Assembly (NCBI GenBank): GCA_001275005.1 | Contig: JWZX01002320.1 | Span: 1-34,223, forward strand | Direction: 5' to 3' | From: Chrysochromulina tobinii | Taxonomy: Eukaryota | DNA length: 34,223 nucleotides | Part shown: piece after piece, positions 2 through 29,633 of the stretch | How positions within the stretch are numbered: position 1 is the first letter of the stretch | Layout: each line of letters opens with the position of its first letter | Translations under genes and position numbers: made by a program | The notes under the pieces: generated by a model | Seen by the model: only the letters and a program-made list of their open reading frames with translations | Told to the model about the DNA's origin: nothing | The model's database searches: none

Positions 2-3000
2 ACCGCTGTCAACTTGCACGCTCCACCGACAGCCACTCGTGGCCTACGGCGCCTGTCGGAGGATGGGAGTAGCGTCAGCTCCGGGCAGGCAAGCCCGGTG
101 GTCACCTTCAAGCTGCTCCGGCCGAATGGGGACGAGATTGAGATCAAGAACGCCTCGACACCCATCGAAATCAGCCTGCCCTACCGCGTGAACTCTGTCA
201 ACAATAGCCGGCCGCCGTGCATTGGCGAGCCCACCTTGGAGCCAACGATCGAAGTCAGAGGCGGCCTCGTCGATGTGGCCTCGTCGTGGAGTTGTGACAC
301 GATCGTCCAGTGCCGCTTCTGGAACGAGGCTGAGGGGTTCTGGTCGACCGACGGCTGCAGGACGATCGTTGACGCGGAGGGTGGAGTCGGCTGCTCTTGC
401 AACCACCTCACCGAGTTCATCGCCTTTGAGTTTCCTCTCACCGTAGAAGAGTTACTCGACACGCTCCTGGAGTCGGTGACCATCAACACCATGAGCATCA
501 GCGCCGTGCAGTGCGCCTTAAATCCACGGATCGACAAAGATCCTGTGGTTTGGTGTCTCGTGATGCTCCTCATCGTGGCCCTCGTCATCAGTCTCGTGAA
601 TGCGGTCCGTCGCGATCGAGCGGAGATTGCTGTCACCGAGCTGCTTGTCAAAGGTCGCAAGCTGGAGGCACAGCGGAAGGCACACAAGAGCATCTCTCAA
701 ATCGTCGGCAGGAAAAAGGCAACCAAATCCGGACAAGATGTTCAACATCTCTTATTGCGTGCGTCGTCACGCGGGGATCTCTCATTCATCGCGGCATCGA
801 ACACTCAGGGGAAAGCGACAACGCGGAGCTCTTTGTTAGCGGCATCGGACGCCACCAGCGGGATAAACGCAACCAGCAGGAGAAAATCGGCAACGCCTGC
901 TCAGGGTCCAATGGCGAAGTCACCTGCGGCGCTCAGGTCATCCGCGGCCTTCGGCATCAAACAAGAGAAGCAGCCGCAGCAGCAGCACGCTACAAGCAGG
1001 AGAAAATCGGCATCGCTTGCTCAGGGTTCAAAGGGGAAGTCACTCGCGGCGCCCAGGTCATCCGCGGTCTTCGGCATCAAGCAGGAGAAGCAGCCCCTCC
1101 CTCCCAAAATCGGCGGCTTTGATGATCGTGCTGGGCAGCCTTCGCCTCCGCCGTCGCCCCCAACGTCCTCTATACTTTCGACCGCACCCCCACGAGTTGC
1201 ACCAAATCCACGTCGTCCCATGAGCCCTGCCGAAGCGGCCAAGTCGGGGCAGGGCAAAGGCGCGATACAAAAGGCAACAGGCTTCAAGGCGGTCGCGGCT
1301 CAGGCTGGAAATGTCAACGCCGCCACGGACGCGATGAGCAAGAGAGCGGCCGCGCCGGCGGCGGCAGGCTGCAGCTCGGCCAGGGACAAGACGGTGGCTG
1401 CCGCTACCACCAATGGGGCTGCGGGCAGCGGCGCCGCTCGACACCAGCGGCGCTGGTGGAGGTTGGGTTGGACGGCGTTGGCAGCCAACGCCCTCGGCCA
1501 GAGCAGTACGCCGCGTGGGCCGGCAGCTGATCCCGCAGACGAAGCAGCGTCAGACACTGCAACAGCCAATGGAGTTTCCCCGGCCACTGCCCCATTATTC
1601 GGCGCCACTCAAGAGACCTTCGTTGAGGCCTTCGAGCCTGCAGAAGAGGTCAGCATCGAGGAGATTGACGAGGAGGCCGGCGGTGCTGTTCCGCGTGCAC
1701 TGCCCCGGCGTTTGACGACCTCTCTGGATGAGCCGCCACCTGTAATGGCCAAGCATGAGAGGACCTCTCTGGACGAGTCTCCGCCTGCTCCGCTTACACG
1801 GAGTCTCGAACGCAAGCGGAGTCTCCGGGACGTGATACTAAAGCGTGAGCTGGGCAGGCAGGAGCGAGTCACATTTAATGTGGGTCCACAGGCCGTGCTG
1901 GCCAAGCAGCAGCGAGTCAAAATTGCAGTGCGTCACGAGCGAAAGAGAATAAAAATGGACGTGCTTGGGATCTTTGGCAATCGGGGCCAGGCGCCGGCTG
2001 CCGACGCCGGCTCTGGCCAAACTCCGCGCTTCTCGGCCGCGCACCGCTGGTCACAGGCCAAGCTGGAGGCACAGAAGGAAGTGCTTGCAAAGCGATGGAG
2101 CAAGGATGTCGACCGGCCGTACAAGCGCATCTGGCTAGCCTTCAAGGGATCGCACTCCCTGCTCTCCGGGCTCGTCTATCGCGGGGCGAGCGGCGCAACC
2201 CGAGCGATGACCGTGATGGTGCTTTTCAACTCAATCAACCTCGAGTTAGTGATCTTGTGCATGTTTTACTCGGGCCCAAGAAACGGCGAACCCATGGTAA
2301 TCAATCCGGTCGGCATCGTCTTTTCTGCGAGCATTGCAGCAGCTATTTGCATCCCGGCTATGCTCACCTTAGGCTGGCTTTTTGAGCCGGAGGTCCTCGC
2401 GCGCGTGCCCATCCGATTGCTTACACTGCTTTTCGGCTGGCCACTCCTTAAGCTGTACCGACTCATCGTTCCGGATAAGAGTGGCGAGACGACCAAAGTT
2501 GAGGAGGCCGTACCGCCAGATGGGTTGGCGTGGGAACTCATCGGATCCACCCCACCGACGACGGGAGGCTGCTACGAGCTCAGGAATGCGCAGCTGGCTT
2601 TTGCCCTACAGCGCCGCACTTGGTTCTATGAAGCTGACCTCCGGTCTTTCGGGCTCCTTCTTGTCAATCAGAAATGTTTCATCAAGGCAGGTGACCATTA
2701 TTTCCGCCCCAAGTTTGAGTTCTCTGTTTCTGCTGGAGGGCGGAAACTGACGTGCAGCGACAGAATAGTGCTCTCTCTACCAGGCTCTTCGTTGACTGAT
2801 GCTTTCCATATGAGCTCCATGGCCAGTCTCGGCCTGGCGCCCTGCACAAGGGATCTAACGGTCGATGCCGCGGGGTCTTCCGATCAGGGCCTCAGGCCCG
2901 TGCGTGAGGCCGACGTCGTGGAGCAGCTCGACGCAAGGCCGGGAGCTCAACTCGCAACAGAGACGTTGACGAAGCCGACGGATCCTCGCCATGAGCTCGA

Positions 3001-4093
3001 GGCACGGCCAACGGCAACGGTGCACCTCCCCGTGGTCCTCGAGGCGTTCAAGGGAGACAAGCTCGAAGCCGAGGATCCGTCGGTTTCGTCGAGGAAGGGC
3101 TCGTCGGTTTTCGGGCTCCAAGCCGAGGATCGGACCGCGGGAGCAGCCGCTGGCGTCACGAGCCCTCTGGAGCTCGGCAGCTCAGAACAGGCCGTTGACG
3201 AGCCCCCTTCACGTCCATCGGGAGATTCAATCCAGCCATCAGGCGATGGCATCCCCCTTGGGCGTGCGCGGCTCCGCGGAGCCATGAGCAAAGTGCGCGC
3301 GGTGAATCGAGCCTCTGCGCTGGCAGAGGCAAGTGCTGCCAAAAAGGCGGCTGAGGAGCAGGTGCTTGAGGTGCAGCGGAAACTTGAGGAGCTCAGGAAG
3401 CGTTGTGGTGCGCGGGCTTGTCAAGAGGGCGGAGTCAAGCTTTCCTCTGCACTGGCGATGTGTGTGGAGACGTGTGTGGAGAGCGGAGTGTCACTTTCTG
3501 CCGCATCGCCACCTCCTTCGCCTCCAGAAGAAGGATCCGAGCGCAAGCGAGAGCGCCCGCGCGTTCGTATTCGTTGCGGACAAAGCGCTCTTGCGAAGGG
3601 TCGTGCAGCTGAGAAGCGCATCTCGAAAGACGGCAGCAAACCTCGTCTCAAAAGCCTCTTGCAGCAAGCATCCAACAGAAACCGCCCGGTCAAGGACCGC
3701 AAGTTTTCATATGCGAGCCTCGACGACTGGATGCTGGCGCAGTCTCTGACACGATCGGTGCATTTGCGTCACTGGGCTGACGTGCGCAGGATCCTGTTCG
3801 GGTGGGTGGCCAGCCTGGTCGTTTGGTTCGGGCTCCTTATCACCTTCATCTTTTACGCATGCGAACTCTTTGTCGGCGGTGGCATGTGGCAGCAGCTCAT
3901 TTTTGCGTGGATCTTCTGCGTATTCCAGCGCTTCGTAGTCAACGAGCCCGTGCTCATCCTCGCTGCCAAGGGCTTTCCCATTCTCTTCGCGTCCGAGTTC
4001 TTCGCCAACTTTTGCGGAGAGACAATCGTGAACCTGCTCGACCTCAGCGTCCAGGCCATTACGTCGTGCTTCGCGTTCATGACCAAGCCGTGA
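2..4093 (+). CDS. GPS/GAIN-domain multi-pass membrane protein, polycystin-1 (PKD1/REJ)-like; 5' partial
   Basis: The frame is open from the window edge to TGA at 4091-4093. GPS motif CRFWNEAEGFWSTDGC...CSCNHLTEF has an intact H-L|T cleavage consensus and is followed by a TM helix (VVWCLVMLLIVALVISLV). The segment HSLLSGLVY..TRAMTVMVLFNSINLELVILCMFY resembles the PKD1-family TM2 region. Further TM segments lie near the C-terminus. Confidence 0.8.
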   Translation, partial: TAVNLHAPPTATRGLRRLSEDGSSVSSGQASPVVTFKLLRPNGDEIEIKNASTPIEISLPYRVNSVNNSRPPCIGEPTLEPTIEVRGGLVDVASSWSCDTIVQCRFWNEAEGFWSTDGCRTIVDAEGGVGCSCNHLTEFIAFEFPLTVEELLDTLLESVTINTMSISAVQCALNPRIDKDPVVWCLVMLLIVALVISLVNAVRRDRAEIAVTELLVKGRKLEAQRKAHKSISQIVGRKKATKSGQDVQHLLLRASSRGDLSFIAASNTQGKATTRSSLLAASDATSGINATSRRKSATPAQGPMAKSPAALRSSAAFGIKQEKQPQQQHATSRRKSASLAQGSKGKSLAAPRSSAVFGIKQEKQPLPPKIGGFDDRAGQPSPPPSPPTSSILSTAPPRVAPNPRRPMSPAEAAKSGQGKGAIQKATGFKAVAAQAGNVNAATDAMSKRAAAPAAAGCSSARDKTVAAATTNGAAGSGAARHQRRWWRLGWTALAANALGQSSTPRGPAADPADEAASDTATANGVSPATAPLFGATQETFVEAFEPAEEVSIEEIDEEAGGAVPRALPRRLTTSLDEPPPVMAKHERTSLDESPPAPLTRSLERKRSLRDVILKRELGRQERVTFNVGPQAVLAKQQRVKIAVRHERKRIKMDVLGIFGNRGQAPAADAGSGQTPRFSAAHRWSQAKLEAQKEVLAKRWSKDVDRPYKRIWLAFKGSHSLLSGLVYRGASGATRAMTVMVLFNSINLELVILCMFYSGPRNGEPMVINPVGIVFSASIAAAICIPAMLTLGWLFEPEVLARVPIRLLTLLFGWPLLKLYRLIVPDKSGETTKVEEAVPPDGLAWELIGSTPPTTGGCYELRNAQLAFALQRRTWFYEADLRSFGLLLVNQKCFIKAGDHYFRPKFEFSVSAGGRKLTCSDRIVLSLPGSSLTDAFHMSSMASLGLAPCTRDLTVDAAGSSDQGLRPVREADVVEQLDARPGAQLATETLTKPTDPRHELEARPTATVHLPVVLEAFKGDKLEAEDPSVSSRKGSSVFGLQAEDRTAGAAAGVTSPLELGSSEQAVDEPPSRPSGDSIQPSGDGIPLGRARLRGAMSKVRAVNRASALAEASAAKKAAEEQVLEVQRKLEELRKRCGARACQEGGVKLSSALAMCVETCVESGVSLSAASPPPSPPEEGSERKRERPRVRIRCGQSALAKGRAAEKRISKDGSKPRLKSLLQQASNRNRPVKDRKFSYASLDDWMLAQSLTRSVHLRHWADVRRILFGWVASLVVWFGLLITFIFYACELFVGGGMWQQLIFAWIFCVFQRFVVNEPVLILAAKGFPILFASEFFANFCGETIVNLLDLSVQAITSCFAFMTKP
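868..1095 (+). repeat. Two-copy tandem duplication (~120 nt period, 40 aa) within the PKD1-like gene
   Basis: ATSRRKSA..AQG...KS.AA.RSSA.FGIKQEKQP occurs twice with high nucleotide identity. Confidence 0.85.
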
Positions 4094-12889: not shown

Positions 12890-13250
12890 GGATCCAGCTG
12901 CAGCGGAGTGCCGTGAACGTGAGCGCCCATCTTGAAGACAAGCATGCACGTCCGCCGGGTAGAGGCAGCCGAGCTCGGTGGTTTTGGCGAGCACCATGGT
13001 GGAAAGGCCGCCATTCACATCAACAACAGCCTCCAGGGAAGGAGCAAAGTCTGTGCACGGGTACAGTATGTGTCCTGTGTGTCCCGGCTCCCCCCGGTGT
13101 CTTTGAACCGGTACTGTACAGCATTGCATGAACCCTGTCGAACCTACACGGGCGATCTTGAGGACATGTGAGGACCTTCACGTGAACGTCGATTTTTGTC
13201 GCATCGTCGTCGCGTGCCTCGGTGCGCCGACACTCCGCCGCCGCCGTCGC

Positions 13251-13532
13251 ATGACCGCCTCGCTCCGCTCGCTCATCCGCCTGGTGCCATGCCGTCTCCG
13301 ATCCAGCGTGCTCGATTACGTGCGCCGGCACGCTCCGGATGCCAAGAGCGACGCGCTGTTCCGCGAGGTGCACTTTCTTTGGAGCACGCAGCGCCACCTG
13401 AAGCAGCTGAACGAAAAGTACTTTCCGCAGTCGGGCATGACGCAGGCGGAGGTGGTCGCGGCGACCGCGGCGCGTGTCGGCTTCCGCATGCCCAAGGCAG
13501 CCGACGAAGACGCCAGCAAGAAGCAGAAATGA
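13251..13532 (+). CDS. FMC1: Mitochondrial ATP synthase assembly factor FMC1-like (LYR-related), 93 aa
   Basis: Basic N-terminus MTASLRSLIRL. C-terminal FLWSTQRHLKQLNEKYFP.SGMTQAEVVAATAARVGFRMP matches the recalled Fmc1/C7orf55 pattern (L.E.Y.P...M...E.V..TA.RVGL.LP). Confidence 0.75.
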   Translation: MTASLRSLIRLVPCRLRSSVLDYVRRHAPDAKSDALFREVHFLWSTQRHLKQLNEKYFPQSGMTQAEVVAATAARVGFRMPKAADEDASKKQK

Positions 13533-14521
13533 GCCCCGGCCTGCTGCTGCCGTTGCTGCTCATGAGTCCTGCGGCCGAGGCGGCCGAGGCCGCCTCGGCG
13601 GCGCAGGCGGCGCAGGCGGCGCAGGCGGCGAGGCGGCCGCGCGAGGAGTGGTTTGAAGAGGAACTGACACTGCGCCCGCTGCATTCGGGCGGCCTGCTCC
13701 TCTACGCCAACCTGAGCGTCGCAATAGTGGGTCGCAACTGGCGGCAGCTGGAGCTCTTTCCTAATGCGGTCGCAGAGCTCCTTTTGGCAACGGACGCCGC
13801 GGAGGTGCACTTGTCGTTGAGCTCGGGACGCTGGTTGGAGGAGTGGGGCACGCCGCCCGAGCCTGCGCCCGCGGGCGCCGCCGCGTGGGCCTGGGTGCCG
13901 ACCGCCAAAGGGCGCGAGAGCTGGCGGCTCGTGCTCGAGGCTCTGTCGTCGCTACTGTGCGCGCGGGGGGGGTGGCTGGCAGAGAGCGGCGAGTCAGGTG
14001 CGGAGAGCGGCGACGGCGAGGGCAGCGGCGACGGCGAGGGCAGCGGCGACGGCGAGGGCAGCGGCGACGGCGAGAGCGGCGACGGCGATGCGGGCGCCCG
14101 TTGCGCGGCGGCAGGGCGTGCCGCAAGCACTGTCCCCTCAGTCGAGGTTCATCCATACAGGCGTATGGAGTCGTCGGTGCGTGCGCTGCGCTCGATGAGG
14201 ACCTCCTTAGGACCACATAGTGGCGCTAATGAGGACCTCATTAGGACCTCATTAGGACCGCATGGCGACGCTGGGGCGTCGGGGTCGGCGCGGCCCCATC
14301 CAAATAAGGCAACCGGTCGGATCCATCCTAATAAGGCAACCTGGCGGCTTTACCATGCGACAGATCCGCGCCAGGGGGTGTGCACCGAGAACGTGGGTAG
14401 CTGGCTCGGACTCTCGCCGTGTCATGACGTGGCGGGCGTGGGCGAGGTGCTGCGCAGTCGGGGAGTCGCCCACGAGGATGACGAACCGCGAGGCGCACAC
14501 AGCGGCGGCGTCGGCGGCGTC

Positions 14522-14573
<52 letters not shown>

Positions 14574-16357
14574 AGGAGCGCGAGCCCGGCGTGGGGCGGC
14601 ACATTGTCGCGGACTCGCGCTTCACCTCGCTACGCTTCCGCCTCGTCACGGAATGCGCGCCCGACACGGCGCCCGACCGCCCCCAGACCGACGCCGTGTC
14701 GGGCGCCGCGTCGGGCGCCGCGTCGGGCGGCGCGTCGCGGTGCCGCCCGCAGACCCGCCTCGCCCTCGGCTTGACGGCAGTGCTCCCAGGTCGCGTAGAG
14801 ACTGTGAACGTAGAGACTGTGAACGTGGCGTCCCATGCAGAGGCCACGGGGGGCGGTGCGGCGACAGGTTCGTCCAGCGGTAAACCCCGGCAAGCGATCG
14901 ACTGGCTCTCGCGCGTTTTTGGTGCGGACCGGTTGCATGCGGACGTCGCACGAGGGCAGGGGCGTCATTCACAGGGGCTTCATTCACAGGGGCTTCATTC
15001 ACAGGGGCTTCATGCCTGCCCTCTCGCGCGCCATTCAGTGCTTCGTCTCGAGTTTGCTGGTGCGACACCGACGGCGCATGAGGCTGCACTAGGCGCCATC
15101 TCCGCGGCCATCACCGCGGCCGGGGTGCCGCCCTTGCGTGTCTGGCCGTCGGCCTACGCGCCCGAGGGACAGCTGCACAGCGGTGGCCTGGTACGTGCCG
15201 AGTGGACGCTGCCGCCCCCCGCATGCAAGTGCTCACCACGGCGCCCTCCCTCCCCACAGGTACGTGCCGAGTGGACGCTGCCGCCGCCCCAAGCTGAGCC
15301 GATCAGCTTCGCATACACCGCGTGGCCTGCCGCGGCCCTCGGCGCGCACACTGCACACCACGGCGCGCACACGGCCCACCACGGCGCGCATACTGCCCAC
15401 CACGGCGCGCACACTGCCCATCACGGCGCGCATACTGCCCATCACGGCGCGCCAACGGTCTCTTTGGGGCGGGCGGAGGGCCTGCCGGAGCCCATCTCGG
15501 CGCGCACTCCGGTCGGCATGCAACCGCCCGTCACGGCGCGTCGTCCGGTCGGCATGCACGCGCCCATCACGGCGCGTCGTCTGGTCGCGGGCGATGGGGA
15601 ACGGAAGAGCTCGCTGCTGCTCGAGCTCACGTCGTCTTGGGCGCGGCCCGTGCGCGTCGACGTCGTTGATGAGCTCCCTCATTGGGTGCAACCCTACTGG
15701 CACACGCTGCGCTGCTGGCGCAACGGCACCTCAGTCGGCCTCGACGAGGCGCTCTCGAGATGGCGCATCGATCCCGCGTCCGCGCCCGCACCGCCTCTAC
15801 CCAGGGCCATCGAACTCTATTCGGCCGACGCCGTGGCTACCCGTGCCCCGCATCAGTTCCGGTGGTCGGCAGACCTACCGGCCGGGCCGACGAGTCTAGT
15901 GGTCGCGTTCGACATCCTCAAGCCCGTCCGACATATCGACTCGATGCCGGCAGATGCCTCGCGCGGTCTCGACATTGGGTCGGCCGCGGTGGCCTACAGC
16001 GAGGTTGCGCGCGCTGCGGCCGGAGCGGCCGGAGCGCCCGACACGGCGCCGACGCCCGACGAGCCGCCGCTGACGAAACTGGCGATGACGAAATTGACGC
16101 CCGACACGGCGCTGCCGCAGCCGCAGATGCTGCTCTTCTCGAACGCGGTGGTTGTAATGCTCCCGATCGCGGACGACAGCATGCCATACAATGTGATCGC
16201 CGTCAGCTCGACGCTCATCGCTCTCTTCGTCGGCCAGATGTTCAACCTCTTGATGCGCCCGCTCACGGGGCGCGGGAAAGCCAAAGCCAAAGCGGAGCGC
16301 TTGGCGGAGCGGCGGGAGCGAGGACGAGGTGCGCCGCTCAAAACATGTTTTGTGTAA
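13529..16357 (+). CDS. PIGT: GPI transamidase component PIG-T/Gpi16; exons 13529-15190 and 15260-16357
   Basis: Signal peptide-like MSPGLLLPLLLMSPAAEA. Family motifs FEEELTLRPL, LFP, VHLSLSSGRW, APAGA..WAW, LSSLLCA, VCTENV..WL.L.PC, DASRGLDI and LPIADDSMPYNVIAVSST, followed by a TM helix. Confidence 0.9.
15191..15259 (+). other. PIG-T intron (family B; 69 nt, in frame)
   Basis: GTACGTGCCGAGTGGACGCTGCCGCC (copy of the downstream exon) followed by GCATGCAAGTGCTCACCACGGCGCCCTCCCTCCCCACAG. Confidence 0.8.
15341..15451 (+). repeat. Five 21-nt tandem repeats encoding GAHTAHH in PIG-T
   Basis: Directly visible in DNA and translation. Confidence 0.9.
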
Positions 16358-16691: not shown

Positions 16692-19600
16692 ATGGCGGCG
16701 GCCGCTCCACGGGAGGCCAGGAGCGGCCCACCGGCTCCGGTTCAAGGGACGCCCACGTCTGCTCCTCCTCCGCAGCCCCCTGCTCCGCCGCCCGTGGTCC
16801 CAAACGGGACGCCGCCCGACCTCGCCCTCGCCTTCGCCGAGCTGGACGTGCCTGGCGGCCCTGCTTCCCTGCCTCCGTCGCACCGCCACTCGATGAACCT
16901 GGGATTCGCGAGAGAGGTGGCGCGCCTTCACGTGGGTGCGCCCGTCATGCGTGCCGCCGAGGCGAATCGACGCTTGGTGCATGAGCTCGCCCAACGCGCC
17001 TCCGCCGCGCCCTCTTCCCTTTCGTCGTTGGTGGAGATTTGCCGCCAGTACTTGAGCTGCTGTGCTCAGGACTTGGCCCCTCTCGCGTGCGGGCTTGAGG
17101 CGCCATGCCGCGAGCTGCTCAGCTACGCCAGCACGATCGGCGCGGAGGACGCTGCCAGGCTCGAAGCCGACTTTCGCGCTTCCGTGAGCGCCGCGCGGCT
17201 TGAATCCCCGCCCATCCCCAGCCCCGCTCCCCCGTCACCCTCCCCCCCTCGTATGCCTGCCCATCCCCGCCCCCCACCCCCGCGACGAGGTCGTCTTTGG
17301 CTGCATCACCGCCTGTCCTGCCTGTTTCGTGCAGGTCGAGCTCAACGTCCACGGCTGCGCCGTCTCGCGCGCGGCCGCGCTGAACGACGAGTTTGTCGCC
17401 TACCTTCGGCTCGTCTACCCTCCCGTCTCCGGCGAGTGCCTCTTCTCTCCGGGCGCCGAGGCCTTGGACGCGCACTGCGAAGGCTACCTCCGGCTGGCGT
17501 GCGACCTCCGGGCGAGCTTTGAAGGCGACTCCCCAGCAGCCTCTGCCCCGGCCCTGCCCGACTGCGGCTTCGAGGAGCGCTGCCGCAGCTACCTGCATCA
17601 CGCGGATCCGACCTCGGCGACGCGGCTGGCCACAGCCACGGCGGCCGAAGCGGGCCCACCGCCTGTTGCCCCGGCCGCCGCCCCGCACCCTGCCGCCGCA
17701 TCTTCTCCTCTGCCCCCCGATCCGGACGCCCAACGCGCGTCACGGCAGCGATGGGCAGCGGCGCTCGCCCACCTTCGTCCGCGTCTGAGCGGCGGCGCTT
17801 CAGCCCCCGACAGTGCAGGCGCCTTCTCCTTCTCGCTCCCACCGTCGCGTCAGCCCTCGGGCCGAGCATCGTGCCCGCCGTCGCGCCAGCCTAGTGAGGC
17901 CGCACGCCAGCCGATGGCGGCCGAGACCGAGGCGGAGGTGCCGCGCGAGATGTGCCCCGTGTGCGACTGCGAGCCGGCCGACTTCATCCCATCGTGCGGC
18001 CACGCCACGTGCTCCGACTGCGCCATTCGGATGCTGCGCGCAGCGTGCGACGACCAGAGGTCGGCCCTGGACGCGAGCGGCTTTGCGTGTGTGCAGCGGT
18101 GCGAGCGCCGCATCGGCCCCAACGACGTGGAGCCGCTCCTCACAGACCCCGCCAGCAGCCGTCTGAGCGCGATCCGGGGTGGCGCGCCCGATCCTGGTGC
18201 GCAGTTTGGCGGGCGGGGGGCTGATGGAGCGCTCGGGCTGAGCTACGAGGAGTATGAGCGCTTCCGCCAGTTTGTGCTTCAGGCGTCCATCCCCGTCGAC
18301 GAGCGTGTCCACTGCCCCAGGTGCGAGCGGGCCTCGGCGCGGGCCGATGTCACCACCGATGGCGGCGGCGGCGGCACGCGCGGGCTGCGCTGCCCACACT
18401 GCCAGCACTGCTGGCGCCCGGACGCGACGGACGCGCAGGGCCCGTCCACGACGGCGACGGACGCGTACATTGGCGCCACCAGCCGGCAGTGCCCCAACTG
18501 CGACGTGCCGGTCACCAAGTGGCACGGCCACAGCTGCCACCACATCTCGCCGCAGACCAACGGCTGCCCCAACTGCCACCAGCACTTTTGCTATGTGTGC
18601 CTCCACAAGCACGGCCGGCCCGGCGAGCGCGCGTTCCACAGCGAATGCGCCCACCACCAAACCTTTTGCCGATTGGACGACATCGGCCTTCACCTCGGCA
18701 TGGAGCCGTACCCGCACGACGTGCGCTGCGGCTGCCCCATTTGCCCCGACTGTCGGAGGGGCGTGCCGTGCGAGCTGTGCGACGGGGGCTGCGTGGTGTG
18801 CCGCGGCCTCGTGCCCCCGGGGCCGACGGAGCTCGCAACGCCGGCGGCCGCGTGCACGGTCGCGGGCTGCGTGGTGCACGACGAGGCCGCGGCGGCCAGG
18901 TGCCGGAGGCGCGAGGCGGAGCTGCAGTGGGCGGAGCGGCAGCGGCCGACGCAGGGTGCTGAGGTGTACCATGCCGTCGTCCCGGAGGGCGTCACGACGC
19001 TCGAGGCAGGGTACTTTCGTGGGCGGCGGGATCTACGGTCGGTGGCGCTGCCGGCGAGCCTGACGCGCATCGGCGATCGCGCGTTTCAAGGCTTCCACTC
19101 GCTCGCACTGGGGGAGCTGCCCGCGTCCCTCACGAGCATCGGCGATGACGCCTTCGCCGGGTGCTCCTCCCTCGCGCTGAGGGAGCTGCCCGCGTCCCTC
19201 ACGAGCATCGGCGATGACGCCTTCTACGGGTGCTCCTCCCTCGCGCTGAGGGAGCTGCCCGCGTCCCTCACGAGCATCGGCGGTGGCGCCTTCTTTGAGT
19301 GCTCCTCCCTCGCGCTGAGGGAGCTGCCCGCGTCCCTCACGAGCATCGGCGATCGCGCCTTCAACGGGTGCTCCTCCCTCGCGCTGAGGGAGCTGCCCGC
19401 GTCCCTCACGAGCATCGGCGATGGCGCCTTTGACGGGTGCTCCTCCCTCGCGCTGGGAGAGCTGCCCGCGTCCCTCATAAACGTCGGCGATTGGGCCTTC
19501 CGCGGGTGCTCTTCCCTCGCGCTGAGGGAGCTGCCCGCGTCCCTCACGAGCATCGGCGATGGCGCCTTTGACGGGTGCTCCTCCCTCGCGCTGGGAGAGC

Positions 19601-20742
19601 TGCCCGCGTCCCTCACGAGCATCGGCGATTACGCCTTCGCCGGGTGCTCCTCCCTCGCGCTGGGGGAGCTGCCCGCGTCCCTCACGAGCATCGGCCGTGG
19701 CGCCTTCAACGGGTGCTCCTCCCTCGCGCTGAGGGAGCTGCCCGCGTCCCTCACGAGCATCGGCGATCGCGCCTTCTTCGAGTGCTCCTCCCTCGCGCTG
19801 AGGGAGCTGCCCGCGTCCCTCACGAGCATCGGCCGTGGCGCCTTCAACGGTTGTACCATGGTTGTCCCGGAGGGCGTCACGACGCTCGAGGCAGGGTACT
19901 TTCGTGGATGCCGGGACCTACAGTCGGTTGCGCTGCCGGCGAGCCTCACGCGCATCGGCGATCGCGCGTTTGAAGGCTTCCACTCGCTGGCGCTGAGGGA
20001 GCTGCCCGCGTCCCTCACGAGCATCGGCGATCACGCCTTCGAAGGGTGCTCCTCCCTGGCGCTGAGGGAGCTGCCCGCGTCCCTCACGAGCATCGGCAAT
20101 CGCGCCTTCTTCGGGTGCTCTTCCCTCGCGCTGGGGGAGCTGCCCGCGTCCCTCACGAGCATCGGCGAGAGCGCCTTCGATGGGTGCGCCTTCGCTGTCG
20201 TCCGGAAGGGTGTCATGATGCTCGAGGAATGGCACTTTTGTAGGCGGCGTGACCTACGGTCGGTGGTGCTGCCCGCGTCCCTCACGAGCATCGGTTGGGG
20301 CGCCTTCCACGGGTGCTCTTCCCTCGCGCTGACGGAGCTGCCCGCGTCCCTCACGAGCATCGGCGATGGCGCCTTCGCCGGGTGCTCCTCCCTCGCGCTG
20401 GGGAAGCTGCCCGCGTCCCTCACGAGCATCGGCTATCGCGCCTTCTACGGGTGCTCCTCCCTCGCGCTGAGGGAGCTGCCCGCGTCCCTCACGAGCATCG
20501 GCGGTGGCGCCTTCTTTGAGTGCTCCTCCCTCGCGCTGAGGGTGCTGCTAAGCTCCTTCTTGAGGGCAGGGGGGGGAGGGTTTCGCTGGGCCGGGCGACT
20601 GCTACTGCTATCTCTTTTGTTGCGCGCTTGTATTGACGCCTCCGTGTTCTGGCTCTCCATCGCTCTCACTCTCGCTGCTGGCGCTGCTGCCGTTGCTCCG
20701 TCCTCTGTGCATTCGATTCTCCGTCACGTGTTAGCAGTGTGA
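16692..20742 (+). CDS. RBR (RING1-IBR-Rcat) E3 ubiquitin ligase fused to BspA/TpLRR-type leucine-rich repeats with a hydrophobic C-terminus; exons 16692-17183 and 17335-20742
   Basis: Canonical intron GTGAGC...CTGTTTCGTGCAG (17184-17334) joins two ORFs in phase. RING1 CPVC..CGHATCSDC..C..RC; IBR-like HCPRC..RCPHCQHCW; Rcat-like QCPNC..K..GHSCHHI..CPNC..HFCYVC; extra Cys-rich region; LRR units LALRELPASLTSIGxxAFxGCSS. Start uncertain (16563, 16692 or 16893). Confidence 0.85.
17184..17334 (+). other. Conventional (non-repetitive) spliceosomal intron
   Basis: GTGAG donor, pyrimidine-rich TGCAG acceptor, resolves the frame change. Lacks the family A/B cores and exon copies. Confidence 0.75.
18976..20541 (+). 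repeat. Tandem array of ~20 69-nt LRR units plus 3 cap-like units
   Basis: The scaffold CTCGCGCTG(A/G)GGGAGCTGCCCGCGTCCCTCACGAGCATCGGC......GCCTTC...GGGTGCTCCTCC recurs with a 69-nt period. Confidence 0.95.
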
Positions 20743-21333
20743 CATCATCAGCGTAAACGCATCCAAGGCGTGGCAGTGCGGCAGCGGCAGTGAGGCAGCA
20801 GCGGTGTGGCAGTTTGTGGCAGCAGCGGCAAGTGGCAGGTGCGGGGCAAGACCGGGCGGGGATGGTCAATCAATGTGTCGCGCGTGCGTTCGTGCGGGTG
20901 CGGGGGTCTGGGGCACGCATCGCGGGGTTGCCGCCAGGGGGGTCGTTCAGAGCGAGCGTCGGGTATAATAGAGGCCAGCCTTGGTAGCTTCGGGTAGGAT
21001 GGTTTTGAAATGTTTATCATTTTTACGCATCCAACGACGATGCTGTAGAGATCAGGCATACCCCGTGCGTAGCCTAGTCGTGCCTCTCGTCTAGACGGAG
21101 CATCAACCTCCTCGCCACCTAACCTGCTAAACCAGCATGTTGATCCACCTACGCTGTACACAATTCATTATAGTTACGATGCACACGGACCGCCACGTCT
21201 GTGGGGAGTGGGCCGACCGCGCCGAGCGGGTCTGCCCGCACCCACGCCGCCCCAGTAATATCCCATGGTGTCACGCATCCGAATCATGTCTAGCGCCGTA
21301 GTGACTCAAAGTCGGCGGGGCTCTCGCGACTTG

Positions 21334-22639
21334 TCACGCCGAGCCGGCGCCTTCACACCGCCGCCTGTTCACACCGCCGCCTGTTCGTAGCGCGAACCCG
21401 ACCGAGGTCCATCCGTGCGCATCGAGCTCGATGTTGGTGGTGACTGCGGCGGTGACGCTAGCGCTGCCGTCGGCTTTGAGGCGAGAGAAGAGCGAGACGT
21501 ACGAGCGCTCATACACGAGCGCCGTCGGGTGCACCGTCACCTGTGGGGAAGAGGCAGCGCCGTGGTGAGCGCATACATGCAGCTAGACGTACGCGCGCTC
21601 AAACACGAGCGCCGTCGGGTGCACCGCCCCTCGCAATCAGCGGCCATCAGGGGCAATCAGCGCCGTCGGGCGCGCGGTCACCTCCGCACCCAGCGCGTCA
21701 TCGTCCACGCAAAGCGCCGTGCAGACGACGTCCAATCGCTGTCGAAAGGACTGGCCGTTGCCGAGAAGCCGCCCAATGCCGGTGACACACAGGGCGTTCG
21801 AGCCCATCGCCTGAGCGCCAGCGCCCTCAAAGAGGCGTGCAAACTGCGCCTCCGTCGTGTGCGCATACATCTCGAGCACGATCACGCCGACATTGTTCAC
21901 CACGCGCGGCTGCCCGTCGAAGACGACTGAGAAGGCCACGCACAGGGGCGCGTCCGCTCCGCCCTTGCCAAGGGCGAGCATGGCATCCTTGAGCATGGCG
22001 AAGTAGGCTGCGAAGCGCCGGTTGCTGCCCTCGGCCGCGCGCACCGTGTACCACTTGAGCAGGTGCTGGTTTGGGCCGCTGGGCACTTCGTGCATTGGCT
22101 TCCTCATGAAGCGCAGCGTGTGGGGGAGGCGTGCGCACGGCACAGAGCAAGCCGTAGAGGGGGCTCGAGGGTGGGAGCTTACGTGGCGGGGTGCCGAGCA
22201 TCGACTCGATGCATCGGAGGAACATGGAGCCACCCAAGTAGCGGTGGTCGGCGTCAAGCTCGACGAGCAGCCGATCGGGGTCCCCACGCACTCGCATCGC
22301 GTCGTGCTTTCCAGCGAGCACATCGGCAACGGTCTCGATGCCCTTGAAGCGAGGGCTCGCGACCGCGATCCACTCGACCACTTGGTCGGTCCGCCTCGAG
22401 TCCAAATTGCGAAAGTATTGCTCGTAATCCTTCAGGCTTGGCATCACGAAGCGGGAAGTCAGCGTGCGCTCGCCCGCGCCGTAGCGCTTCGCATCCTCGA
22501 GCTTGGCCTGGTGGAACTCGTCCTCGATGGTCTGTGACTTGACCTGAAGGCCCAGGGCGGCACGCAGCACCACGAACATCGGAGACACGATAGCCTGATG
22601 GAGCACCCGTATCCACTGTAGGATCGTGGTCAACACCAT
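21334..22639 (-). CDS. Hypothetical protein, possibly CoA-dependent acyltransferase/condensation-like fold; apparent frameshift near 22130 (pseudogene or assembly error); intron 21541-21681
   Basis: ATG at 22639. Frame 1 is protein-like to ..LYGLLCAVR; frame 2 is protein-like from RLPHTLRFMRKP. Motifs LDADHRYLGG and VAFSVVFD..PRVVNNVGVI. Last exon 21540-21334 is in phase. Confidence 0.6.
21541..21681 (-). other. Hybrid family A/B intron
   Basis: GTGACC + short exon copy + CTGATTGCCCCTGATGGCCGCTGATTG (A core) + ~40-nt copy of the downstream exon + GCATGTATGCGCTCACCACGGCGCTGCCTCTTCCCCACAG (B end). Confidence 0.85.
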
Positions 22640-22832
22640 TTGTGAGTCCAAAAATACATTCGTTTGAAAGCAATTTGGATTGACTTGTCTTGATTTGCCT
22701 CCTGAACTTCCGCCGTGGGCGATCTTTGCCGCGTGACGCCCAAAGTTACGCGGCTCCTGTAAAGCTTATTCATAGAGGAGGGTGCAGGAACATGTACCGG
22801 TAGCACCGATCGGCGCAGCTCGTTGACGACAC

Positions 22833-24204
22833 ATGGTTCTCGGAGCCAGTGCGCTCTTCCTTCTGCTCGAGTACCTGCAATTCTATCGTGACACGCTTCA
22901 AAACCGGCATTATCTCAAATATCCCAACAACGCCGACGTCGATGGCTCCATAGCCTTTCATACCTGGCCACCCGGGGCGAATGCGATGACGATGGCTGGC
23001 CAGAGGCGACTTGACCACACCGTTGCGATCATCGCAACGGCGATCGCCGATGGCATCCCAGGACATTTCATCGAGACGGGCGTGTGGCGTGGTGGTATGT
23101 CCTTCATGGCCGCGAAGGCGCTCGAGGTGCTTGCGACCATTGAGACGGAGCGTACTGGAGTGGCAACGCCTCCGCGCCTGGTGTACCTGTGCGACAGCTT
23201 CGCCGGAATTCCGGAGCAGACATCGTACGGTCGCGGCCGAGACCATGTGCACCCCGCCTCGGGCCTGGATCGCAAAGCGCACGCATTCGGCATCCTGAAC
23301 GACAACTCGGTGGACAGGGTGCGAGAGGATGCTGCGAGGGTGAATCTCGGGCCGACGCTACGCTGGGTGCCCGGCTATTTCAACGAGTCGTTGCCGCGGT
23401 TGGCGCGCGAAGAGCCCTCGCTCACCTTCCTCACGATTCGACTCGACGGCGATGCGTATTGGTCCACCTACGAGGCGCTCACCGTGCTCTACCCGAGGCT
23501 CTCGCCAGGTGCGGACCGCTGATGACGTCTGATTGCGTGGATCACATCTGATGGCCACTGATTGCATCTCTACCCGCCGCCCTTGGCAGGCGGGTTCGTC
23601 ATCATCGACGACTTTACAGATTGGACTACCTGCCGCGAGGCGGTCGACAGGTACCGCGCCGAGCAGCGCATCGCTGATGACCACTGATTGCGTTGATGAC
23701 ATCTGATTGCGCGAGGCGGTCGACAGGTACCGCGCCGAGCAGCGCATCACAGCGCCGGTCGTACTCGTGCCGCACAAGCGAAACGAGGTCGTGCGGGGCG
23801 CCTATTGGCGGAAGCCCAGGGAAGGATCCAAATTAGGCAAAGGACAACCCGAGCATTCCAAATTAGGGTCACCCCCGCCGCTGTGCGTCGGGGATGGCGG
23901 GCACGGAGCTGTCCGGGTACCTGGCAGCTACAACCCTTCGAACGCGGTGCCAGTCGGACCGCCTGCAAGCGTGTGGAGCTCTCCAGCAACGAACTCGTGG
24001 AAGCTCGAGCAGTACGTGCCGCCTGCGCAGATCTACATGTGCACGAAGAGTGAGGCCGAGGAGGCGCTCGAGACGATCGACAAGCCGGCTCCAACGGCCG
24101 ACGCTCAGGAGAGCGAAGTAGACAGGCGCCGAAGGCAAAAGCTTCAACTGCAGAGCGCAGCGTTGCGTGGAAGCAGCAAGAGCGTGGAGCTGCGCGCCTT
24201 GTAG
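22833..24204 (+). CDS. TylF/MycF/NovP-family (macrocin-type) SAM-dependent O-methyltransferase; exons 22833-23508, 23590-23650, 23727-24204
   Basis: Motifs WP..AMTM.G..RL, IPGHFIETGVWRGG, VYLCDSFAGIP, VPGYFNESLP, IRLDGDAYWSTYEALTVLYPRLSPG|GFVIIDD, CREAVDRYR, GAYWRK. Hydrophobic N-terminus. Confidence 0.92.
23509..23589 (+). other. TylF-like gene intron 1 (family A-like core)
   Basis: GTGCGG..CTGATGACGTCTGATTG..CTGATGGCCACTGATTG..TTGGCAG. Splicing restores LSPGGFVIIDD. Confidence 0.88.
23651..23726 (+). other. TylF-like gene intron 2 (both splice sites derived from a 39-nt exon duplication)
   Basis: Perfect direct repeats at 23634-23672 and 23710-23748, each containing CAG|GTA, flank a 37-nt CTGAT-rich core. 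Confidence 0.9.
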
Positions 24205-26698: not shown

Positions 26699-29633
26699 AT
26701 GTCATGGAGCTTGCCGACGCTGCTGCATGTCGTGTGCATGCTCCTATCATGGAGGCTAACTACCGAACAATATGCACAGAACCTGACATGCTGCACTTCA
26801 CAGAATTCGGAGTCTGGGCGCATCGGACGGTGCGACCATCTGGCACAGCACAATGGCTGCCGAACCGATTGGATCCGAAATCGCTGCCCTGTAGCGTGTG
26901 GAAATTGCAGCGTTTGCGACCCAACCAGGCGCGAGATTTACCAAAAGTTATACCTGCGGACGGCCCGCATGCGGGCCAAGGCTGCGCCGAGCGAGGTAGC
27001 GTACACCGAGAACATGAGCGTGCCATTGGATGAGGCCCGGAAGATGGCGATTCGCACGGGCAAGGAGCTGTCACGGCGCGCGCGCCGCCTGCTAGCCGAA
27101 GAAGTGATACGCGGGCTCTCGTTCTCGCACTACGTGGTCGATCCAGCGTTCGACATGCCGCTCACGCAGCCCATCTTCGACTTCGTTCGCTTTCGCCGCG
27201 GCCGCGCCGATCAGATCCGATGGCCTCGGTAATGGGAGGCCTGATTGCGTCCTATCAGATCCAATCGCTAATGGGAGGCCTGATTGTGTCCGATCAGATC
27301 CGAGATGGTGACGGGAGGCCTGATTGCGTCTGAGTGCCTCTGGAGGCGTAGACGTGCCGTTGAGTGCACCCTGATGACGTCTGATTGTCTCCCTCATCAG
27401 GCACGGCATCTCGTTGGGGGGCGTGGACGTGATGCGCAAGCTGGCTCAGCTGGTTGATGACATCCTCGAGCGTGGCATACGAGGGAGCTTTGTGGAAGCG
27501 GGCGCGTGGAAGGGCGCCAACGGCATCCTGGTGCGCAAATTGTTCGACGCCGCTAGCGACGTGGCCGACCAAATGCGCAAGGTCTACTCCCTCGACACAT
27601 TTGCCTGGTTCCCGAACAAGACGAACAGCACGTACTATGCGGATCGCGGCATCGTCGAGGGCTTCTACGCGTCCGGCCGCTGGCATCCTAACTTTTATGC
27701 CGACCTGCGCAAGGTGAAGCAGATCCACACCCAGTTCGGGATCAATCTCCAATACGGCGGCCTGAAGCTACTCGATGGAGACTTGGAGCAGCTCGCACCC
27801 GAGCTTGCCATCTCGCTACAGAGCGACGCCGAGAAGATTGCGCTGCTCGTCGTAGACACGAACCACTACAAGGGTACCTGGGAGACGCTGAAGGCACTCT
27901 ACGCCCATGTGGCACTCGGCGGCTATGTCCTTCTCGGCGACTACGGCTCGCCTCCGTCCCGGCGCGCGGCCGACGACTTCCGCGGCTGCATGGGCATCGA
28001 GTCGGAGCTGGTCTTCTTCTTGCCGCACGGCTCTCCGCACGGAAGGCACGGCAAGGCATACTGGAAGAAGACGGAGGAGCTGCCGCCTTCGAAGCGCTTG
28101 AACGCGCGGTGCGAAGCTATGCCTTCGTTGACGGTTGGGTTCGGTGCGAGCCAAGACGTGTCCTTCGTTGTCGCGCACGAGACCAAATTAGGCGAGGGTA
28201 AGGACTTCCCGCCCGTCATGCGGCTGGCACCCCTTACAGTCTCCGCGCGCCCAACAGCGCGCGAAGCCTTCAGCCGCGCAGCCAGATCGTGGAGCAGCGC
28301 CAAGGGTTCGTCATGTTTCGTCGACGTGCTGCTGTACGGCCTCATCCGATCGGACGCGATGCTCGAGTACACGACGCCGACGCTCCGCTCGCATGGGCTC
28401 GAGCCGTTGGAGGGCCACGGCTGCCTGCACGTGCATGCCTACTGCCTCGAGGCGCGTTGCAACATGTCCACTGCGAGCACGTTGCTACGACGCCTCGGAG
28501 CTGCGTCGTTGAACGTAACCGCCGCACTGCCACCCCCCGCACTGCTTGGGAAGCGCATCGAACTCGAGTGGAACGCGCGGGACCCGTCGTTGGATGCGAT
28601 AGCGCGGATGATCGCGAGGGATGCTCGCAAGCGACGCAGCGAAACCATCCATCGGTGGCGCTGTGGCGTGCACAGCCTGTCGCAGGCCTGGGCCGCTGCG
28701 CGACTGCACACGCCCGCCAAATACGGCGAGGCGCCCTCTGGCCTGGTGCTGGTCTGCCGGATCGATGCCGCCTTTGTGGCGAGACCAGCACCGATAGGGC
28801 ACCTTCCTAATATGGATCTGATCGATCACCTGTGGGCATCAGATGCGTGGGAGGCGCACGAGCGTCACACGGTTTTCGTGCCCGAGTTTCAGCACTATGG
28901 CGGTCTCAACGACCGTTTCGTCTTCGGCTCGGCAGCGGCTGTGGCCATGCTGATCTCCGCTCGCGAGGAGCAATCTCGACTGGGGGAGACTTTTGCGGAG
29001 CAAGCCATGTGCTCCGCCGTATTGGAACACAACCTGTCGGTGCGCACCACGACGATCAGTTTCGTACGCGTGCGCGACGACAACTCCATCCCACCCGTTG
29101 ATAGTGAGACGGTCCTGTCCAACGCCTCAGCGCTCGGCACAACGCCCGATACAAGGTGGTGGAACGGGCACAGCAACGGCATGTGCCTCAGCTGCGTGGG
29201 CCTCGCAGGCCGCTGCTTAGGAAGCGAAGAAGCGGCGGCTTACGGCCTCAACCCATACCACTCCTTCTGCCCCGGCCAACTGTGCCAGCTTCTCACGTCC
29301 ATGAACAGCCGCCTAGGGGCTCTCGTTGACAGAGCTCAGCTGGCCGGTCTTCACACGTTGGCCCGTTCACGGCCGGCCATGTTCGCAGCCTTCAATCGGC
29401 GAATCGCGCGCGGCACCAAGCGGACCGAGTCCATGTTAGGCAAGTCCAGCCCTCGGAGCCGCCGAGGGAAGATGAGGCAGCCCGAGAGGTCGACGCAGCC
29501 TAGCGACGCTCAAGTCGCGGACGCCAAGAAAGCACAGGCAGAGCTGGACGCCCTAGTGCACGCGGATCTCGAGCTCATAAACCAAGCCGAGCGGGAGAGC
29601 CGCCGTCGGTCTGTTCTGAGACCCATCTTCTGA
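26699..29633 (+). CDS. Secreted/membrane protein: ShK-like domain + TylF/MycF-like O-methyltransferase + putative glycosyltransferase-like domain; exons 26699-27228 and 27401-29633
   Basis: Hydrophobic N-terminus. ShK-like C..LAQHNGC.TDWIRNRCPVACGNC. TylF-like WPR|HGISLGG, IRGSFVEAGAWKG, VYSLDTF, IALLVVDTNHYKGT..LKALY..VALGGYVLLGDY, AYWKK. Second domain VLLYGLIRS..VLVCRIDAAF..VFVP..YGGLNDRFVFG. Start uncertain (26633, 26684 or 26699). Confidence 0.82.
27229..27400 (+). other. Family A intron in the ShK-TylF gene
   Basis: GTAATG...CTGATTGTCTCCCTCATCAG. Contains repeated copies of the upstream exon end (ATCAGATCC) and GGAGGCGTAGACGTG, similar to the downstream exon. Confidence 0.88.

Follow-up and report, generated by a model that had tools for sequence, protein, structure and literature searches.

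A Chrysochromulina tobinii gene joining a predicted RBR ubiquitin ligase core to a variable BspA-type repeat array

Proteins that join a leucine-rich repeat (LRR) recogniser to a ubiquitin ligase are known from animals, in LRSAM1, and from bacteria, in the IpaH/NEL effectors. A gene that we describe here, within a 34,223-nt stretch of Chrysochromulina tobinii contig JWZX01002320.1 (the window), recalls that arrangement by analogy but with different parts: unlike those RING or NEL ligases, its product has a core of the RING-between-RING (RBR) type, and its repeats belong to a different LRR class. Among described RBR ligases, ARIH1/HHARI and Parkin (PDB 5udh, 4kbl, 4k7d) share with the window protein the order RING1, in-between-RING domain (IBR) and Rcat, a C3HC4 RING1 and a catalytic Cys-x-His; unlike them, it has an IBR with a single zinc site, an HGH preceding the Cys, Rcat ligands in shifted positions, a 10-Cys extension and LRRs. 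RNF216 (8eb0, 7m4n), HOIP-LDD and HOIL-1 (9egv) likewise carry an added zinc element rich in Cys on the C-terminal side of the catalytic loop. The repeats are of the same class as those of BspA/TpLRR proteins (PF13306; 6mlx), including the trichomonad and Entamoeba families; whereas most descriptions of those proteins assign them to the cell surface or to adhesion, the window repeats come after a ligase core and are expected to be cytosolic, because no N-terminal hydrophobic segment ranks in a hydropathy scan.

A further parallel is provided by the brown-algal ROCO LRR proteins, candidate immune receptors whose immune role, in the part of PMC11378527 available to us, is proposed and unproven. 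Like the window array, ROCO LRRs show shuffled units, few diversifying sites per repeat and an attached intracellular enzyme domain; unlike it, according to the same part of that source, they comprise plant-type repeats, one per exon, whose selected sites lie on the concave face, and are joined to a GTPase, whereas the window array is BspA-type, lies within one exon and is partnered by a ligase. Searches of the literature, with subscription papers outside their coverage, returned no description of either the RBR subfamily outlined below or an RBR-BspA fusion. In the portions at hand, PMC2904391 sets out four plant RBR subfamilies with no mention there of LRR, and PMC4327156 treats IBR architectures in general terms only.

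We tentatively favour a reading of the sequence in which a predicted RBR ligase from an apparently unnamed protist subfamily likely gained, in recent times, a fast-diversifying BspA arm, which would bind targets in conflict with viruses or bacteria; as a whole, we place this account just short of an even call. Its parts differ in strength. Catalysis by the window protein, judged by analogy with characterised RBRs, is probable, and a role for the LRR array as target receptor is slightly favoured. A defence role is possible but somewhat doubtful; in the part of PMC12489294 seen, two BspA-LRR genes are among the up-regulated set of virus-recovered Gephyrocapsa huxleyi.

The predicted ligase core and its gene

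In order, the window protein has RING1, a one-zinc IBR, Rcat and a Cys-rich module, followed by three capped blocks that together hold 20 BspA repeats and then by a hydrophobic tail (Table 1). Pfam matched the LRR family alone, and neither a RING nor an IBR family, so that assignment to the RBRs depends on a family profile and on fold. NCBIfam yielded nothing but LRR matches below its threshold. A profile of 71 relatives matches Parkin and ARIH1 through RING1, IBR and Rcat (positions 6-225, E 6e-10), with neither match reaching into the RING0 or Ariadne region, and a single-sequence search of solved structures returned the ARIH1 Rcat (E 0.004). For the core model (mean predicted local distance difference test score, pLDDT, 86), Foldseek gave 11 matches at E<=0.001, every one an RBR ligase (RNF216, Parkin or ARIH1), with RNF216 (8eb0) at the top. 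Residues 2-162 of the model align with RING1-IBR chains of Parkin and HOIL-1, and the RING1-IBR portion reaches Z 6-7.8 against RBR chains; RING1, with ligands C7, C10, C21, H23, C26, C29, C52 and C56 of the 302-aa core, gives a VIA-align Z of 7.8 and a root-mean-square deviation (rmsd) of 2.4-2.7 A over 86-87 residues against 1wim and ARIH2 7oni. By homology and predicted fold the core is of RBR type, as the original prediction held, and ligase activity is predicted.

The predicted catalytic residues point the same way. C201 and H203 of the core lie in register with ARIH1 CNH(M) and Parkin CMH(M), and the Cys of HGHSCHH, which sits on the catalytic Cys of both proteins in the profile alignment, is invariant in both subfamily alignments, A2 and A3. 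The RING1, IBR-like segment, Rcat and GHSCHHI named in the original prediction are all present, the IBR with one CxxC..CxxC site. GHSCHHI had been taken there for an atypical feature of this gene, which it is not: HGHxCHH is a subfamily signature, found in 158 of the 178 distinct relatives that we examined from homology searches, many of them fragments.

The RBR, LRR and tail regions occupy one stop-free frame (17188-20742). The ATG at 16692 is out of frame with it and is joined solely via the intron at 17184-17334, a polyA RNA contig from run X3 (X## denotes RNA runs, L### other DNA loci and P#### related proteins) skipping exactly 151 nt bounded by GT..AG, with 188 letters on the shorter side. 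The resulting open reading frame (ORF) encodes 1,299 aa and has a single stop at 20742. Window GC is about 65%, its introns are spliceosomal and its RNA matches come from freshwater, features that suggest a haptophyte-like alga. The N-terminal segment belongs to no known family and recurs in nearest relatives only; it drew zero Pfam matches and no usable ESM Atlas match, and an internal duplication within it was rejected, since 63 of 1000 shuffles equalled the score.

In lake RNA, contigs of related copies span from the Rcat or the Cys module to the first LRR in three of four runs. The X11 polyA contig (2,617 nt) covers 18200-19131, a stretch that begins in the IBR, takes in Rcat and the Cys module and reaches the first repeat, and contigs of runs X13 (18390-19131) and X14 (18641-19131) agree with this bridge. 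As all three are about 3% divergent from the window, they show transcription of related copies rather than of the window allele. A separate contig, from run X15, joins 16700 directly to the pre-LRR linker at 18929, with a short side of 30 letters, and weakly hints at an LRR-only copy without the RBR.

The RBR-LRR junction is identical in two other assemblies. L002, 99.9% identical to the window over 9,269 nt, ends inside the repeats; L001 is the same locus, with flanks 99.4% and 99.98% identical, and its array has seven more units, three of which the window lacks, in another order. The junction recurs in L003, P0186 and P0189, of which L003 is a paralogue, 97.8% identical to the window over the 5' part and set between different flanks. 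Separate transcripts for the RBR and LRR parts, named in the original prediction as grounds for abandoning it, were not found: the spliced ORF, and the RNA contigs of related copies, place both in one gene. Nor does the locus look like a conserved single-copy housekeeping gene, the other such ground, given the paralogue, sisters lacking LRRs and variable arrays.

The BspA array as receptor or passenger

Pfam LRR_5 (PF13306) matches the array at E 9.3e-126 (413.9 bits vs a cut-off of 27.7), and array relatives in the PDB include TpLRR 6mlx (E 3.9e-27). Units are 23 residues long with the pattern IGxxAFxxC, giving a tandem repeat of period 69. The array had been described as three blocks, each opened by the same type of cap; three blocks there are, and two caps read VVPEGVTTLEAGYF, but the third has diverged to VVRKGVMMLEEWHF.

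Variation within the array is tightly localised. Among 15 distinct standard units in the window, codons 10, 11 and 14 encode 6, 6 and 8 residues, whereas 16 of the 23 codons encode a single one. Replacement (pN) and silent (pS) differences, counted plainly between pairs of non-independent units, stand at 0.106 vs 0.068 over all 23 codons, at 0.426 vs 0.135 at four variable codons chosen after inspection, and at 0.032 vs 0.057 at the remainder. Over the 339 codons of core and linker, the window differs from L003 by replacement at 10 and silently at 7. The window's 14 variable triplets have none in common with the 11 of P0189. Such hypervariability is suggestive of diversifying recognition residues, and would fit a recognition role under conflict. 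As a side observation, the variable codons in 19041-20541 mostly take the form NNT at codon 10 and NNC at codons 11 and 14, which selection on replacement sites predicts equally; the pattern recalls the adenine-directed mutagenesis of diversity-generating retroelements.

The distribution of the array speaks to its age. The sisters P0019-P0021, 81-84% identical in the core, stop soon after the Cys module, and in a quick tree (137 columns; 11 of 182 rows left out for short coverage; deep forks unresolved) they share a branch with four BspA-bearing rows at support 99, outside which stand relatives without BspA. Because sisters without LRRs sit beside BspA copies, a recent gain is likely, and a single one is the simplest account. 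The form of the array differs between copies: that of P0189 also has three blocks but is not the same as the window's, and that of P0186 is a single short block.

The principal competing explanation, which we consider unlikely yet serious, accepts a real ligase and treats the LRR array, an ankyrin cassette and the tail mostly as passengers: mobile cassettes that vary by slippage or gene conversion and have no selected receptor role. Sisters that are complete without LRRs, and tails that differ or are missing between copies, would be expected on this account, and L003 adds to the case. There, a 132-aa ankyrin cassette is inserted in frame in the IBR loop, after the codon matching window 18376-18378, and a near-identical cassette lies N-terminally (the N-terminal and IBR copies at L003:6386-6685 and L003:8450-8846, respectively; 7 base differences in 304 aligned), and a TAG interrupts repeat 7. 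Summed contig depth is also higher over the first cap, a weak pointer to a multi-copy cassette, as summed depth is not copy number. What passengers would not lead one to expect is replacement change concentrated in three codons with silent sites nearly fixed, an RBR-LRR frame open to the array end in the window, L001, P0186 and P0189, transcription of related copies across the junction, or the finding that distant members have repeat domains of unrelated kinds at this C-terminal position.

Several further observations weigh against a ligase with a selected recognition arm. The difference in unit number between the window and L001 (21 versus 28) may reflect an allele or a repeat mis-assembly. 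In L003, the repeat-7 stop, a run of five consecutive units that are almost identical and the cassette splitting the IBR could be read as instability just as well as adaptation. The variable residues follow IG and AF, and so lie off the near-invariant LxxLxL-type strand (the LALREL segment), and the way in which the pN and pS counts were made limits what can be read from them. The bridging RNA contigs derive from related strains or paralogues and from a single study. Within the core, the IBR keeps only CPRC...CPHC rather than the canonical two zinc sites, and Rcat zinc-ligand spacing departs from that of ARIH1.

If the favoured combination of RBR ligase and diversifying BspA arm is nonetheless correct, a working mechanism can be envisaged. 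RING1 would bind ubiquitin-loaded E2, by analogy with Parkin and ARIH1; the Cys of HGHxCHH would then take up the ubiquitin in thioester linkage, and the His at +2 may help to pass it to the target. The Cys-rich extension could form an acceptor platform, like the C-terminal zinc additions of HOIP, RNF216 and HOIL-1, with the BspA repeats holding the target and three variable residues per unit retuning specificity. In copies bearing a tail, the tail might tether the protein to a membrane, with ligase and repeats cytosolic. Cell-autonomous defence in protists and microalgae is poorly understood, and a recogniser and a ligase in one protein present a compact and testable candidate, for which copies that bear this arm, lack it or bear another kind already exist in nature for comparison. 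Regardless of immunity, the subfamily widens RBR enzymology through its distinct active-site motif and a conserved, predicted zinc-binding extension for which our comparisons gave no good structural match, and its members seemingly without an IBR would bear on the need for that domain in RING-to-Cys ubiquitin transfer.

The tail, the Cys-rich extension and remaining alternatives

The membrane tail is the weakest part of the architecture. Hydrophobic sequence is present as originally described, with a best 19-residue Kyte-Doolittle mean of 1.97; as a conserved element the tail fared less well, being missing from the ~98% identical L003 and not conserved between copies. A tail follows the LRRs in three of four full-length LRR-bearing versions (window, P0189 and P0186). 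That of P0189 is longer and homologous to the window tail (1 of 1000 shuffles as good), the window tail aligns to the L003 ending as far as the L003 stop, and for the hydrophobic tail of P0186 no relation to either was detectable (its scores were equalled by 217 and 401 of 1000 shuffles). Read antisense, the tail gives short polar stretches, and a search with a three-tail alignment among proteins of 234-2000 aa gave P0045 alone among the matches listed. RNA contigs provide no cover at 20528-20624 in one comparison of four runs, and in another, likewise of four runs, depth is near zero at 20707-21073; contigs record presence only and are not evidence against the tail. A membrane anchor is therefore best described as possible in some copies and not a fixed part of the design.

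Tail-anchored RBRs are exemplified by RNF144 and RNF19, and a membrane-tethered housekeeping ligase of this kind, turning over endogenous membrane or phagosome proteins while its LRRs bind host partners, would make sense of a tail in most full-length versions and of the homology between those of the window and P0189. We regard this explanation as improbable: L003 is tail-less, an RNA contig in X3 ends with an L003-type terminus, the P0186 tail is unrelated as far as can be detected, and GC at third codon positions (GC3) is 0.61 in the tail vs 0.89 in RBR and LRR. Hypervariable residues and patchy presence would also be unexpected of a housekeeping binder.

The Cys-rich extension, whose pattern CGCPICPDC..CELCDGGCVVC had been picked out as an extra module, proves to mark a wide protist RBR subfamily rather than an oddity of this gene, as it is present in 154 of the 178 relatives. 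Modelled separately, it scores a pLDDT of 88 (mostly >90) and a predicted template modelling score (pTM) of 0.80. Structural comparison is less telling. Rcat plus extension gives weak scores against the Rcat domains of Parkin, HOIL-1 and RNF216 (Z 2.3-2.7), and the window extension aligns poorly with the zinc elements of RNF216, HOIP-LDD or HOIL-1 (Z 2.3-2.4), with rmsd 5.2 over 64 aligned residues for HOIL-1 and 3.9 over 71 for RNF216, both at Z 2.4. No chain except RBR Rcat domains reached Z 2, which is not proof of a new fold, and a viral fold library gave zero matches at E<=0.001. ESM Atlas features place Nucleocytoviricota clusters first (0.94, 0.93), weakly, with a recognition score of 1968 below the bar of 2300.

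Zinc additions past the catalytic loop set specificity in characterised RBRs, as argued in the part of bioRxiv 2022.11.13.516300 available to us, and by analogy we infer that the extension may shape specificity here. The same part of that preprint describes HOIL-1 as having Trp at +2 from the catalytic Cys and a C-terminal His as base. A HOIL-1-type Rcat was considered and rejected: unlike HOIL-1, the window subfamily keeps His at +2, and its Rcat is not terminal. A likeness of the extension itself to HOIL-1 found support no better than Z 2.4.

These low scores (best Z 2.7) bring into view a dead zinc scaffold, or a plain RING1 ligase whose His/Cys-rich C-terminal half binds metal or nucleic acid. 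The Cys is closely surrounded by three His, potential metal ligands, and the IBR, reduced in the window protein, is absent in some relatives: in 19 of 145, the 54 residues ahead of the Rcat linker are without any Cys. An invariant Cys in the ARIH1/Parkin catalytic register with His at +2, together with a VIA-align comparison of Rcat plus extension in which each of the 6 rows is an RBR Rcat domain, makes such a protein quite improbable. Least likely of all is that the fusion is an assembly chimera or two genes, which is largely refuted: 69-nt repeats assemble poorly, L002 ends inside them, the L001 order differs and the database relatives P0023 and P0193 look chimeric, but L001 and L002 match the window exactly at the junction, which L003, P0186 and P0189 also possess and which RNA contigs cross.

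The wider subfamily, virus-like members and neighbouring genes

The window protein belongs to an apparently unnamed protist RBR subfamily marked by an HGHxCHH Rcat and a 10-Cys extension. A core search yielded 388 representatives of 50%-identity clusters at E<=0.001, the weak end of which may include ordinary RBRs, and 239 at 1e-10. Named members come from Mallomonas annulata, Chrysophaeum taylorii and Aureococcus anophagefferens, alongside MMETSP transcripts. Pfam partners among the 178 relatives are varied: ankyrin in 34, LRR of three kinds in 5, TPR in 3, WD40, C-lectin and EF-hand in 2 each, and ARM, MORN, FYVE, KH and beta-helix once each. As read from these architectures, the subfamily core is a scaffold with exchangeable partners, of which the BspA fusion is one instance.

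Nine virus-like members start with KYxKYKxKY: P0103, P0119, P0131, P0159, P0163, P0169, P0177, P0185 and an uninterrupted ORF in L005 (L005:574-2391; 26% GC). In their alignment RING1 leads on to Rcat without an intervening Cys cluster of IBR type, and their C-termini include LRR_8-type repeats in L005, P0159 and P0185 and WD40 in one. The KYxKYK DNA pattern was found at 131 loci (L016-L146) in a scan covering half of the viral contig collection, within 12 codons of an ATG in 103 of 142 matches; among the best 80 of the 131 loci, 38 carry a GVMAG label, and median GC is 22%. More generally, KYLKYKxKYLxLK opens many unrelated genes on AT-rich, often GVMAG-labelled contigs, and a literature search on KYLKYK found nothing relevant. 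The nine members are likely of giant-virus origin, to judge indirectly from these sequence features. Exact-pattern scans, which are no proof of absence, confirmed 0 of 52 matching stretches in the viral collection and 0 of 31 in a genome contig collection that included prokaryotes when run with the family alignment, and with the nine-member alignment gave one LRR-only match in the 18 of 64 parts of the viral collection scanned.

In the quick tree the nine fall in three places far from the window branch, so that their LRR fusion is likely independent, and given the unresolved deep forks we claim no direction of host-virus transfer. It is conceivable, if speculative and on balance unlikely, that the subfamily serves as a plug-in warhead: hosts would add hypervariable arms (BspA LRR, ankyrin, TPR, WD40) and ubiquitinate invaders, and giant viruses would have taken the warhead, lost the IBR and added LRR or WD40 of their own, in a mirror-image arms race.

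Table 1 Features of the RBR-LRR gene and of its neighbours in the window
Feature	Position	Strand	Basis or remark
Exon 1	16692..17183	+	Pro/Ala-rich start, then first half of N-terminal segment; translation; RNA-spliced to exon 2
Intron, phase 0, GT..AG, 151 nt	17184..17334	+	polyA run X3, joint 17183->17335
Exon 2 through TGA stop	17335..20742	+	whole protein 1,299 aa
RING1 (C3HC4), predicted E2~ubiquitin docking site	17953..18102	+	ligand pattern; profile aligned to Parkin/ARIH1 RING1
Reduced IBR, one CxxC...CxxC site	18313..18414	+	sequence; model vs Parkin, HOIL-1 chains
Rcat (RING2), motif HGHxCHH; predicted catalytic Cys 18535-18537, His +2	18490..18600	+	alignment to ARIH1/Parkin
Cys-rich Rcat extension, 10 conserved Cys, predicted zinc-binding	18646..18825	+	conservation in alignment A3
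Linker	18826..18975	+	LRR-less sisters P0019-P0021 end within, shortly past ACTVxGCVVHD motif
BspA/TpLRR array, 20 units x 69 nt, three capped blocks	18976..20541	+	caps at 18976, 19861, ~20197
Hydrophobic C-terminal tail, possible membrane anchor	20542..20739	+	hydropathy; differs between copies
Long ORF	2-4093		GPS proteolysis motif and several hydrophobic segments; PKD/adhesion-receptor-like
Gpi16 (PIG-T) gene	13172-16357		ends ~335 nt upstream of the RBR-LRR gene; several low-complexity inserts
Convergent spliced gene	21111-22765	-	intron seen in run X3; no Pfam match in 264-aa piece scanned
Two TylF-type methyltransferase genes	22827-23519 and 27378-29633		downstream, within 7 kb

Downstream neighbours in the window also include ankyrin genes, and nothing links the Gpi16, TylF or ankyrin genes to the RBR-LRR gene. 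The paralogue L003 is flanked head to head by an alpha-kinase gene (L003:5257-6297, minus strand) and, on its downstream side, by a gene with RI-type LRRs; these alpha-kinases also appear among the cluster members of P0019, a sister without LRRs, probably as a clustering artefact.

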